Virus record (IMG/VR): IMGVR_UViG_3300010965_000002
Location: 1 to 64,000 of that record
Direction: 5' to 3' (one strand)
Origin: a virus
DNA: 64,000 bases
Positions 6,584-29,945 of this stretch are shown in pieces; the stretch's first letter is position 1, and each line of letters starts with the position of its first letter. A model generated the notes under the pieces. That model saw only the letters and a program-made list of their open reading frames with translations. It was not told where the DNA came from and made no database searches. The translations under genes and the position numbers were made by a program.

Positions 6584-7627
6584 TCACGCTGCGTTCACAG
6601 AGTATGGTGCAAACTGCGCACGCAACTCTTTGAGGAATGCTTGGCCTGATTTGATACTGACGTTCAAGTGTTGTAGTGCCAACGCCATGTAGTCTTTGCT
6701 TGGCAACTTGTCCAGCAATTCCTCGTTGGTGTCCAATTTGTATCCAGTCTCAGCCAGGAACGTTGTGAACTCTGGACAGTAGGCACCACAGATCAATTCA
6801 ATGAACCGTCTGCGCTTGCCACTGTACTTCGTCAAAGCACGACCCAACTCAATCTTCAGGTCATTGCTTGTCTCTGGTGCAACTATGGTGTTCAACTGGG
6901 CTTCGTCCAGCGAAATCACCTTGCTGTGAAACGCACCAGCACCGTCCACTTGCAACCGTCCAACCTTCTGGGTGGTGTAGTGGTGAATCATATTGATACC
7001 TTGGTTGTGTATCACACGCTTGACCACGTTCGTTGCGTGCAAGTAGGTCTGCACACATGGATACATCATCAACAAACCTTGGATGCCTTTGAACACCAGT
7101 TCGTGCTCAATATCGTTTCGGTGCAGCCCTTGGCTTTGAATGACAAAGCGCAATTTGCGGCTGACGAACTTACCCATCCAGGTCTTAGTGTCAGACATGA
7201 TGCTGACGATGTTGCCATCCAGCTTTTCCAAGGTCAACGCGTTGAACTGCCTGGCTAACTTTCGCAAGTGCGCCAACACAGTCCTATGTACGCGACCAAA
7301 GGCACGGACATCACGCAAGCTAACATCCCACTTGCGTGCTAGCTTCAAGCTGGCCTTGTAATCCAGCTTGTGCTTCACCACATAGAACACCCAGACTTTC
7401 AAGTTCTTGACAATCGAACCTGACCGACTCATGGCATCCGTAATCGCTCTCACATTTGGTTTGACCTCAGTGAGTTTGGCTATACGGGCACCATACGTCC
7501 GATAGTTGAAACCTCGGAACAGGTACATGAGCGTTGCATTATACAACGCCACCTCGTCACTTGCTTTTAGCAGTGGGTCGGCTTGCTTTACCAGCTCGGT
7601 TAGTGTGTCCTTGGAGATTGAATCCAT
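6584..7627 (-). CDS. Possible divergent sigma70-family factor
   Basis: Region-2-like segment (NDIEHELVFKGIQGLL..HATNVVKRVIHNQGINMI), SLD, and region-4-like ALTKYSGKRRRFIEL; similarity judged by eye. Confidence 0.45.
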   Translation of the reverse strand: MDSISKDTLTELVKQADPLLKASDEVALYNATLMYLFRGFNYRTYGARIAKLTEVKPNVRAITDAMSRSGSIVKNLKVWVFYVVKHKLDYKASLKLARKWDVSLRDVRAFGRVHRTVLAHLRKLARQFNALTLEKLDGNIVSIMSDTKTWMGKFVSRKLRFVIQSQGLHRNDIEHELVFKGIQGLLMMYPCVQTYLHATNVVKRVIHNQGINMIHHYTTQKVGRLQVDGAGAFHSKVISLDEAQLNTIVAPETSNDLKIELGRALTKYSGKRRRFIELICGAYCPEFTTFLAETGYKLDTNEELLDKLPSKDYMALALQHLNVSIKSGQAFLKELRAQFAPYSVNAA

Positions 7628-8399
7628 CTTTAGTGCCCCGTCCGATTGTTTTCGCTGCTGGTGTTGGTTTCTTGGCTTTGCTGCCCTTGCTTTCAATAAC
7701 GCGATCAAGCATACGGCTGTCAAGCCAATTGCTAGGCACGGTATCCAGACTGGGCGGTGTGTACTCGTCAGGCTTCGTTGCCAAAGTCTGTCGATACACG
7801 GCACGTTCGGCGGGCGTCATCTTCAAACATTGCAGAGTCGTTCGCTTGCGGCTTGCAGCCTCAAACTTAGGCTCTGCAATGCGTCCTTCAAGAATCAGCG
7901 ACTTACGTTTCTTCGTAAACTGGGTCATGTTCATTACTGATGGGCGCAGCAATGTCAGAAAGCATCCTTGACCATTCAGACCTTCAAAGTCACTGGACAA
8001 GTACACTTGGGTGGCAGCACGGTCAGCACCGATCACATAGCCTCGAACATAGCATTCAAGATAATCGCCACCGATGGTGAACGCTACCTCTTCGCCAAAT
8101 TCGTAACCTGACTTCTTAATCAAGTCGATGTTGCGGAACTCGTAGGCCAACAACATGATCTGGCTTCGGGTCAAATCGCGCACGATGTCGCGCAATCCAA
8201 TCAGATGGCCTTTCTTCACGATGCTGATCTTGATCAGGTCTGGCGTAAAGCTGGGACAGGCTTCCGCAAAACTCGTCTTACCAAGTTGCATACAGGGCTT
8301 CTCAAATGCTGCCGGCCCTGTAAGGTGAGTGCAGTCTCCACATTTCAATGCAAGCGATACGCGGTTGCTTGAATCTGTCGCGTCTTTCACAATCGTCAT
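7557..8399 (-). CDS. Hypothetical protein with N-terminal Cys cluster
   Basis: CGDC..C..C motif; long ORF. Confidence 0.7.
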   Translation of the reverse strand: MTIVKDATDSSNRVSLALKCGDCTHLTGPAAFEKPCMQLGKTSFAEACPSFTPDLIKISIVKKGHLIGLRDIVRDLTRSQIMLLAYEFRNIDLIKKSGYEFGEEVAFTIGGDYLECYVRGYVIGADRAATQVYLSSDFEGLNGQGCFLTLLRPSVMNMTQFTKKRKSLILEGRIAEPKFEAASRKRTTLQCLKMTPAERAVYRQTLATKPDEYTPPSLDTVPSNWLDSRMLDRVIESKGSKAKKPTPAAKTIGRGTKDGFNLQGHTNRAGKASRPTAKSK

Positions 8400-11743: not shown

Positions 11744-12028
11744 TCAGTCTAAGCCTCTAACGTTGAAAAACTTTTTCAGTAGCCAGCGTTGAAACTGCGT
11801 CTCGGCCTTGACCAAGCGCCAACCTTCTTCGCGTGCTTTCCATGATGGAGTGAACACGCCTTTGCTTGTGTCCAACACCGCAGGCTCGGTGTCTGAGTAA
11901 ACACAGCAAGGCATGTTGTGATTGAAACCCATGCCGTAGTCGAAGTATGTAGGCTTCAACAACGGCGTGCGTTCCAATTCGGCAAGAGCAGCCCTTTGTT
12001 CTTCTTGAAAGGCTTCGTAGCTTTGCAT
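11744..12028 (-). CDS. Hypothetical protein
   Basis: ORF between the topoisomerase genes. Confidence 0.6.
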   Translation of the reverse strand: MQSYEAFQEEQRAALAELERTPLLKPTYFDYGMGFNHNMPCCVYSDTEPAVLDTSKGVFTPSWKAREEGWRLVKAETQFQRWLLKKFFNVRGLD

Positions 12029-23680: not shown

Positions 23681-23768
23681 AAAAATACTTACCATTACGG
23701 GTTGCCGAGCTTCCGTAGTTCATCGGCATGGTCAGATTATAAGCTACGGTGTTAGCCTGACAATTATC

Positions 23769-24239: not shown

Positions 24240-24329
24240 TGGTGCCCGGAGCCGGAATCGAACCAGCACGCCCGTTTCCGAAGCGACGGATTTTAAGTCC
24301 GTTGTGTCTACCGCTTTCACCATCCGGGG
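24240..24329 (-). tRNA. tRNA-Leu(UAA), C1:C72 mismatch
   Basis: Class II cloverleaf, anticodon loop CTTAAAA, long variable arm, CCA. Confidence 0.93.
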
Positions 24330-24379: not shown

Positions 24380-24820
24380 AGGGTGTCCAGTCAATCTGAT
24401 AACAGAGACTCCATCATGATCAGGAGGCTGGACTAAGCTAGAGTATTGCTACCCTAACCGCACTCTGCCGGTGGTCAGCTTTTAGGCTGCCATGCGGAAG
24501 CTACTTTCGTTTGCATTTACTTTGTTTGCATACGTGATTTTCGAGGGTACATGCTACCTCGTGTTGTAAACGCCACTATCTTACGCTGTCGAAACCAGGG
24601 CAGGCCCATCAGAAGAACACTACAACACCACACTAAAGCCCAAGAAGATATTGCTTATTTGCGGCAGTGCATCCCTTTCGGGTAGTCCGTTGATACAACT
24701 AGACTCAAGTGCGCTTCTGGTGGACCTGGCGGGAATTGAACCCGCGTCCAGCATACATTCGCTTTGTCTTTCAGAGCATGAACACGGTACGCAGGTCTTG
24801 CAACCTACTGCGTCATACTC
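24380..24820 (-). ncRNA. ssrA: Circularly permuted (two-piece) tmRNA
   Basis: Acceptor piece ending CAGGTCC-A-CCA at 24718, intervening segment 24608-24717, coding piece starting GGGCCTG at 24607 (G3.U70), pk1, tag ORF 24482-24514 ANESSFRMAA*; outer ends approximate. Confidence 0.92.
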
Positions 24821-29851: not shown

Positions 29852-29945
29852 ATTGTACCACACTTTTTTGCACTGTAAACCAGTATTTTCGTGCTTTTTT
29901 TTCGCTATTTTAGCGGTTTTTTCACGTTTTTGGCAGTTTTTCGAT
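29852..29945 (-). promoter_or_regulatory. sigma70 promoter with upstream phased A-tracts
   Basis: TTTACA (29874-79)-16 bp-TACAAT (29852-57). Confidence 0.8.

Follow-up and report, generated by a model that had tools for sequence, protein, structure and literature searches.

Two-piece transfer-messenger RNAs (tmRNAs) encoded by circularly permuted genes are already known from phages. The example of OM43 phage Melnitz was described by Buchholz et al. (2022; PMC9004378), who also found 53 tmRNAs called as permuted by ARAGORN among the 133 unique tmRNAs of 402 ssrA-carrying phage genomes, and 17 more permuted tmRNAs in Melnitz-like contigs; the permuted entries of their Table S1 include Xanthomonas phage XacN1, the Stenotrophomonas phages Mendera and Moby, the Caulobacter phages CcrSC and Ccr29, Synechococcus phage S-CBWM1 and others. 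The tmRNA database of 2025 holds 79 unique bacteriophage sequences (PMC11915505). Here we describe a gene of this kind from the virus record IMGVR_UViG_3300010965_000002 of IMG/VR, where it lies on the minus strand within the first 64 kb of the record, the stretch that was analysed and that is referred to below as the window. A first-pass annotation of this DNA, made from its letters, had left it open whether a permuted tmRNA in a phage was new; such forms had already been reported (PMC9004378), and this gene is an ordinary new example of a published kind.

Like Melnitz and the rest of that published set, the locus presents a permuted ssrA gene in a large lytic-type phage, beside tRNA genes and without a phage SmpB. 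The Melnitz gene is, however, reported to be of the alpha type, to carry a glutamine riboswitch within the 3′ domain and to have an early promoter of its own (PMC9004378), whereas the present copy is beta-type, has no riboswitch match in Rfam searches of the locus and is without its own promoter or terminator. The XacN1 and Mendera tmRNAs resemble it in being called permuted by ARAGORN and in scoring best with RF01850, and they have the same T-arm sequence and an acceptor of the same G3.U70 design. In BUDD (ON758385) and X1 (OQ427096), two phages of Xanthomonas, the acceptor and T-arm stems are identical to those of the present gene, the spacer stem is homologous, the leader is again UGAU and the predicted pseudoknot that precedes the tag (pk1) has the same architecture, with compensatory changes. 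Unlike the present copy, their tag ends non-canonically, (V)AANDADYSVARYA, their spacer measures 126–127 nucleotides (nt) and their RF01850 scores are 55–56 bits; nor are these phages close to this one by topoisomerase II ranking. The two-piece tmRNA of Betaproteobacteria (Sharkady and Williams, 2004, as cited in PMC9004378), which RF01850 models, agrees with the present gene in gene order, helix 2 layout, a single predicted pre-tag pseudoknot, the terminal hairpin and the lack of pk2–pk4. The T-stem and acceptor sequences of the present copy are, in contrast, off the RF01850 consensus, its CCA is fully encoded, its distal helix 2 is displaced and it is phage-borne. The one-piece tmRNAs of the mycobacteriophage Bxz1 group and of Bacillus phage G are likewise phage ssrA products without smpB, presumably aiding translation in large phages, but their genes have the standard order and need no spacer excision (PMC4131195).

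Identification of a permuted tmRNA gene

ARAGORN calls a permuted tmRNA (tmRNA*) at 24391–24810 on the minus strand with the tag ANESSFRMAA. The Rfam model RF04321 (tmRNA_permuted) matches with 95.2 bits (E = 3.5e-17) against a gathering score of 47, and RF01850 (beta_tmRNA), the top model within clan CL00001, aligns over its full length (1–331) with 81.6 bits (E ~4e-25, permissive thresholds). Judged by these matches and by its predicted structure, the gene is a phage-encoded circularly permuted two-piece tmRNA gene, far beyond a chance match. It is assigned to the beta type by architecture, and not as a curated RF01850 member, the subtype being taken solely from the Rfam model scores. The predicted elements, all on the minus strand, are as follows.

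24815–24781, minus strand: 5′ region of the acceptor piece, taken from the first base of the RF01850 alignment (24815); exact 5′ end uncertain
24808–24791, minus strand: GNRA hairpin GUAGGUU-GCAA-GACCUGC from minimum free energy (MFE) folds, directly upstream of the tmRNA; membership in the mature RNA uncertain
24786–24781, minus strand: candidate distal helix 2 strand CGUGUU, complementary to AACACG at 24565–24560
24780–24718, minus strand: core of the acceptor piece, including an internal-loop region (RF04321 alignment, ARAGORN, covariation in 19 homologues)
24755–24749, minus strand: proximal helix 2 strand UAUGCUG of the acceptor piece
24749–24718, minus strand: 3′ tRNA-like segment GGACGCGGGTTCAATTCCCGCCAGGTCCACCA, read from the sequence
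24745–24729, minus strand: T-arm, with T-stem GCGGG (24745–24741), T-loop UUCAAUU (24740–24734) and T-stem CCCGC (24733–24729)
24728–24718, minus strand: acceptor 3′ strand CAGGUCC (24728–24722), A73 (24721) and encoded CCA (24720–24718)
24717–24608, minus strand: intervening spacer of 110 nt, presumably excised
24717–24708 with 24621–24612, minus strand: spacer-closing stem, GAAGCGCACU with AGUGUUCUUC
24611–24608, minus strand: 4-nt leader UGAU, directly before G1
24607–24515, minus strand: 5′ part of the coding piece (sequence, Rfam alignment, family comparison, covariation)
24607–24601, minus strand: acceptor 5′ strand GGGCCUG, followed by the D-loop analogue CCCUGGUUUCGAC
24588–24582, minus strand: proximal helix 2 strand CAGCGUA of the coding piece
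24565–24560, minus strand: distal helix 2 strand (A)ACAC(G) of the coding piece
24561–24528, minus strand: pk1, an H-type pseudoknot with stem 1 CGAGG/CCUCG and stem 2 GCAUGU/GUAUGC
Directly before the resume codon, minus strand: A-rich resume context ...GUAAAU
24514–24482, minus strand: tag reading frame (ARAGORN, Rfam alignment, family table, fold), with resume codon GCA at 24514–24512 and stop codon TAA at 24484–24482
24489–24486 with 24479–24476, minus strand: hairpin CAGC/GCUG with the stop codon in its loop, from the fold
24481–24434, minus strand: 3′ part of the coding piece; the RF01850 match ends at 24434 and ARAGORN extends to 24391
24458–24437, minus strand: terminal GNRA hairpin GUUAGGGUA-GCAA-UACUCUAGC (RF01850 terminal stem-loop and MFE fold)

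The tRNA-Ala-like domain comprises a 7-bp acceptor stem with G3.U70, A73, the CCA end and a T-arm, GCGGG-UUCAAUU-CCCGC, whose loop is of the GUUCRAnUC type. The permuted order is direct, with the segment at 24749–24718 followed by the 110-nt spacer and then by the segment that starts at 24607, and RF04321 matches above its threshold. As expected of the beta architecture, one predicted pseudoknot precedes the tag and a terminal hairpin replaces pk2–pk4; the structure line of RF01850 aligns to stem 1 of pk1 and to the terminal hairpin at 24458–24437, in agreement with the fold. The first-pass annotation had proposed the same order, with a 3′ segment ending at 24718 ahead of a 5′ segment starting at 24607 across a 110-nt spacer, and all the elements that it quoted are present on the minus strand. 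The covariance model RF04321 and ARAGORN, searches of the kind that it had named as a check, both call a permuted tmRNA, and the tag called by ARAGORN is the one that it had read. We place the 3′ end of the tmRNA between 24434 and the 5′ end of the neighbouring tRNA-Leu gene at 24329. Between the terminal hairpin and this tRNA gene there is an extra domain (24383–24433) closed by GUCCAG/CUGGAC, whose membership in the tmRNA is uncertain.

Comparative support for the predicted structure

Five helices with 38 pairs were scored in an alignment of 19 sequences, with column shuffles and slid partners as controls. Pairing is retained in 92.4% of cells, against 72% in the shuffled alignments and 39–46% with slid partners, while compensatory double changes occur in 27 of the 38 pairs and not one of 500 shuffles matched the observed covariation. 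The acceptor stem GGGCCUG/CAGGUCC shows such changes in three of its seven pairs, and its G3.U70 pair, which the first-pass annotation had already pointed out in this stem, is unchanged in all 19 homologues while the other acceptor pairs covary. The T-arm is invariant in the alignment, an invariance that partly reflects how the homologues were retrieved. The proximal part of helix 2 (CAGCGUA/UAUGCUG, 7 bp), by which the two pieces would be joined, has compensatory changes in six of its seven pairs and pairs in 97% of cells; for the distal part, taken across the family, the figure is again six of seven pairs. Helix 2, the acceptor stem and the spacer-closing stem are strongly supported by covariation as predicted helices, pk1 more weakly.

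In the window pk1 has the pairing proposed at first, CGAGG/CCUCG crossed by GCAU(GU)/(GU)AUGC, and the pseudoknot is retained with unrelated sequences in a few relatives, most clearly in BUDD and in the IMG/VR relative L028 (relatives are given by locus number where they must be told apart). A family-wide automated score is not clearly higher than that of shuffled sequences (mean 20.5 versus 14.8 ± 8.0), most members being called with stems of 3–4 bp, and the prediction of pk1 draws mainly on the window's own pairing and on relatives BUDD and L028.

The ends of the spacer, GAAGCGCACT and AGTGTTCTTC, had been noted to pair, and do so at nine of ten positions (with one G.U pair and one C/U mismatch). 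In all 15 family members compared, the spacer-closing stem forms 10–14 of 14 pairs, as against 7.7 ± 1.4 in shuffled sequences, and in the 19-sequence alignment compensatory changes are found in 12 of 12 pairs. A leader of the form U-N-A-U is conserved in the family between the closing stem and G1. Because the covarying stem and this leader together would form a pre-tRNA-like substrate, we infer that excision of the spacer would leave two mature pieces. The 110-nt spacer of the window contains hairpins and no open reading frame (ORF). The 165-nt spacer of relative L029 (IMGVR_UViG_3300048583_000161, 7577–7768, minus strand) holds the start of a 63-codon ORF, which is preceded by AAAGGA and continues into the coding piece.

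The mRNA-like domain consists of an alanine resume codon in an A-rich UA context, an in-frame tag and a stop codon, reading GUAAAU/GCA AAC GAA AGU AGC UUC CGC AUG GCA GCC UAA for a predicted ANESSFRMAA*. The resume context UA-N-N-Y/GCA-AAY-GA is conserved, with 14 of 15 family members fitting the pattern used, and the tags of the family are intact and mostly end in xAA. In length and pattern the full tag, (A)ANESSFRMAA, matches the canonical proteobacterial tag, as well as AANDENYALAA of E. coli, and ANESSFRMAA resembles the RF01850 consensus tag ANDEHFAMAA; the placing of the stop codon in a hairpin loop followed by the terminal hairpin is also that of the beta model. A pattern search found the ANESSFRMAA frame in no other IMG/VR contig. 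Some family tags have non-canonical ends, ...EFRKVA (L028), ...SVARYA (BUDD and X1) and ...AETFAV (L007/L014), in place of the hydrophobic-Ala-Ala end, and these may not be ClpXP degrons.

Relatives in phages and bacteria

A blastn search against 50,697 phage records matched the tRNA-like segment only, in Xanthomonas phages BUDD and X1. With a short sensitive query, near-identical segments were found in further cultured phages, and the six examined (Stenotrophomonas phages QDWS359 and Mendera, Xanthomonas phages JGB6, Rb1 and XacN1, and Bordetella phage PHB04) are all called permuted by ARAGORN, which with BUDD and X1 makes eight cultured carriers. The 32-nt 3′ segment is present in 27 IMG/VR contigs, 20 of them ARAGORN-permuted, representing about 14 distinct sequences that usually lie beside tRNA genes; altogether some 20 homologous permuted tmRNAs were collected. 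Among 185,579 bacterial species-representative genomes the exact segment occurs at 23 loci, and the five of these that were checked are all standard one-piece tmRNAs by ARAGORN, four of them Lachnospiraceae-type and one from Bacteriovoracaceae. RF01850 is the best model for every homologue tested (48–147 bits). Across about 20 phage contigs the carriers range from 62 to 385 kb in genome size and the gene from 42 to 68% in guanine-plus-cytosine (GC) content, and SmpB (PF01668), searched for in the records of five other carriers, including three complete genomes, was found in none. Outside the tRNA-like domain the present copy is 50–62% identical to any homologue found, and the pattern of its 5′ segment and helix 2 sequences has no match in IMG/VR. 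By this comparison of sequences it is a divergent new member of the beta-type architecture.

Genomic setting and expression signals

The IMG/VR record, linear and 176,943 bp long, is 72% complete according to CheckV. Among the genes of the window are those for a helicase, an endonuclease, an NAD-dependent ligase and the two subunits of a T4-type topoisomerase II; the remainder of the record adds a tail sheath (E = 9e-85), the wedge and hub of a baseplate, a tail fibre, ribonucleotide reductase and an SbcC-like nuclease. Its sheath, baseplate and tail fibre genes, together with the T4-like replication genes, identify the record as a fragment of an uncultured large myovirus. The GC content is level across the window. 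By topoisomerase II the closest cultured phages are only about 42% identical, and their hosts are Rhizobium, Xanthomonas/Erwinia, Vibrio, Ralstonia, Burkholderia and Pseudomonas. No integrase was found above threshold in the record. A 585-amino-acid ORF (record 126849–128591, minus strand) that belongs to phrog_23460, of unknown function, has a weak Phage_integrase match of 18.3 bits, below the cut-off of 27.1.

The tRNA genes of the record (Lys, Thr, Leu, Pro and Met) and the tmRNA gene are all confined to one stretch, from 23.6 to 33.2 kb, and are all on the minus strand. The immediate neighbour, found by ARAGORN and Rfam, is:

24329–24240, minus strand: tRNA-Leu(UAA), directly downstream of the tmRNA

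This tRNA gene is likely a co-transcribed neighbour of the tmRNA, and its RNase P site could delimit the tmRNA precursor. Neither a promoter nor a terminator lies between the two genes, and a consensus scan around the tmRNA gene found none of its own, so that the gene is probably processed from a long transcript of the RNA island. Going upstream along this strand, the first strong promoter-like site comes at 29879–29852, with no convincing terminator in between. In many relatives, reading by eye shows a promoter of sigma-70-like form close before the gene and, beyond its end, an intrinsic terminator. A promoter candidate picked by eye here, TTGCAA-17-CATGCT, was rejected: it lies in a hairpin loop and 3′ strand and would exclude the distal helix strand. 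Farther along the island, between tRNA-Thr and tRNA-Lys, there is a sigma-70-like site TTGTCA-16-TATAAT (11 of 12 matches) at 23736–23763 on the minus strand.

Proposed function and alternative readings

We consider it probable, and with good confidence, that the locus is a functional beta-type permuted ssrA gene, carried as accessory cargo in a phage island of tRNAs and structured RNAs, and that the most likely role of its product would be ordinary trans-translation with host SmpB. Sequence, structure, homology and phage context are the direct basis of this proposal, and from them we infer expression, cleavage, alanylation, the use of host SmpB and an effect on fitness. The RNA would be transcribed from the minus strand within a longer stable-RNA transcript, in which the acceptor stem and the spacer-closing stem, one stacked on the other, would present a pre-tRNA-like substrate. 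Cleavage by host RNase P behind the UGAU leader would make G1 the first base of the coding piece, 3′ processing would free the acceptor piece at its encoded CCA, and the 110-nt spacer would be lost; this scheme fits the processing of permuted tmRNA genes as described in PMC11915505. Held together by the acceptor stem and helix 2, the two pieces would be charged by the host alanyl-tRNA synthetase through G3.U70 and A73 and delivered by host SmpB and EF-Tu to ribosomes stalled on broken mRNAs. Translation would resume at GCA and append (A)ANESSFRMAA, marking the product for proteolysis of the ClpXP type by the host. The phage would gain ribosome-rescue capacity at a time when host and phage nucleases truncate many mRNAs.

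Several observations weigh against a functional gene of this type. The RF01850 score lies 2.4 bits below the curated gathering threshold of 84 bits, and unconstrained MFE folding of the two pieces misses helix 2 (z-score about −2.2). At the homologous columns the distal helix 2 of the window pairs at four of seven positions only, and in this copy it forms only through a strand displaced by 6–9 nt, CGUGUU ending 31 nt before the T-arm as against 22–25 nt in most relatives. The first-pass annotation had written helix 2 as AGCGTA/TATGCT followed by AACACG/CGTGTT: the proximal half is borne out by its covariation, but the distal half cannot stand as written, since the strand AACACG (24565–24560) and the pk1 stem CGAGG (24561–24557) share two bases and the two helices cannot both form. 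The promoter and terminator that many relatives have are both missing around the gene. SmpB (PF01668), reported absent from the window in the first-pass annotation, is absent also from the whole 177-kb record (72% complete), and function would depend on the SmpB of the host. Finally, a permuted tmRNA is absent from all five of the nearest cultured phages by topoisomerase II, which were searched whole (Rhizobium phage RHph_N28_1, Xanthomonas phage PhiXhv-12, Vibrio phage GR7B, Ralstonia phage phiRSL1 and Pseudomonas phage SKa-4); from this absence we take the gene to be accessory and dispensable for the phage group.

Some of these points would suit a passenger or decaying relic taken up with the tRNA island, or an attachment-site remnant of a tmRNA gene: the patchy distribution with absence from the five nearest cultured relatives, the lack of an own promoter or terminator, the score below the RF01850 cut-off and the shifted distal helix 2. 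Temperate phages, moreover, often hold 3′ fragments of tmRNA genes as their attachment site (attP), as in several enterobacterial matches. The gene is, however, complete and not a 3′ fragment, with helices, G3.U70, CCA, resume codon, tag and stop all intact; the record has no integrase above threshold beyond the one 18-bit sub-threshold match; and the retention of pairing by compensatory changes at 50–62% identity argues for purifying selection within phages, which makes a relic highly improbable. Still less credence, and indeed almost none, can be given to the idea that the contig is chimeric or misclassified and the tmRNA bacterial. The metagenomic origin of a linear assembly that CheckV rates as 72% complete and the naming of this gene type after Betaproteobacteria speak for it, but the locus is flanked on either side by phage genes (for tail sheath, baseplate and tail fibre, and for T4-like replication), the window has an even GC content, homologues occur in cultured complete phage genomes, and the 32-nt segment is permuted in about 20 IMG/VR contigs while being one-piece in all five bacterial loci checked of the 23.

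A further possibility accepts the gene as active and concerns what the RNA does: it might compete with or reprogramme host rescue, through a phage-specified fate of tagged proteins or a damping of host trans-translation. The host pool of SmpB must be shared where the phage supplies none, and the tags of the phage family are very diverse, some of them non-canonical, such as ...RKVA (L028), ...ARYA (BUDD and X1) and ...ETFAV (L007). A precedent exists in the inhibitory RNA of mycobacteriophage DS6A, which consists of the tRNA-like domain only (PMC4131195), and selective tagging of host proteins was raised by Buchholz et al. (PMC9004378). The tag of the present copy nonetheless keeps to the canonical pattern, in that it opens with AAN, is aromatic at position 7 and ends in hydrophobic-Ala-Ala, and the elements for full trans-translation are all intact and covarying. 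The sequence offers nothing that tells a helper from a competitor, and we regard such a competing role as unlikely, if less so than a relic; ordinary trans-translation with host SmpB is the reading that we prefer.

Distribution among phages and annotation

The relatives allow a broader suggestion, which we put forward tentatively as a possibility more doubtful than not: beta-type phage two-piece tmRNAs may form a lineage that is kept and exchanged among phages, and not repeatedly captured from hosts, that extends to phages of Xanthomonas and Stenotrophomonas and in which the stem-closed spacer is a tolerant insertion slot. In its favour, a single 32-nt tRNA-like segment recurs, in the permuted layout, in about 20 phage contigs that are otherwise very different, and bacterial loci with the same segment were one-piece in five of the five checked (of 23). 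The hosts Xanthomonas and Stenotrophomonas themselves use an ordinary one-piece tmRNA. If there is such a lineage, the present copy would be a diverged offshoot within a family of RNA genes borne by viruses. Beta-type copies are in any case widespread, since IMG/VR holds about 14 distinct forms and eight cultured phages of Xanthomonas, Stenotrophomonas and Bordetella carry one, and the comparative set defines a conserved precursor design of spacer-closing stem, U-N-A-U leader and invariant G3.U70. No new question is raised by the gene, a phage tmRNA without SmpB being already an open question in print.

The practical value lies in improved phage annotation, as the records inspected show their tmRNAs unannotated or under spurious ‘hypothetical protein’ calls. 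The GenBank records of all eight cultured carriers leave the permuted tmRNA unannotated, and in three of the eight a coding sequence labelled ‘hypothetical protein’ overlies it. The sites listed for these unannotated tmRNAs are:

L002, 2830–3150: BUDD
L066, 661–1239: QDWS359
L067, 572–736: JGB6
Also L003 and L068–L071

Unusual tRNA genes accompany the permuted tmRNA in a few of the relatives. Two tRNAs with a CUA anticodon (‘Pyl’ according to ARAGORN) lie just downstream of it, at 672–1059 of L004 and at 11745–12132 of L018, and could be amber suppressors. A tRNA with a four-base anticodon (gcgg) was called by ARAGORN near the tmRNA of a GC-rich viral contig (L019, 5727–5803).

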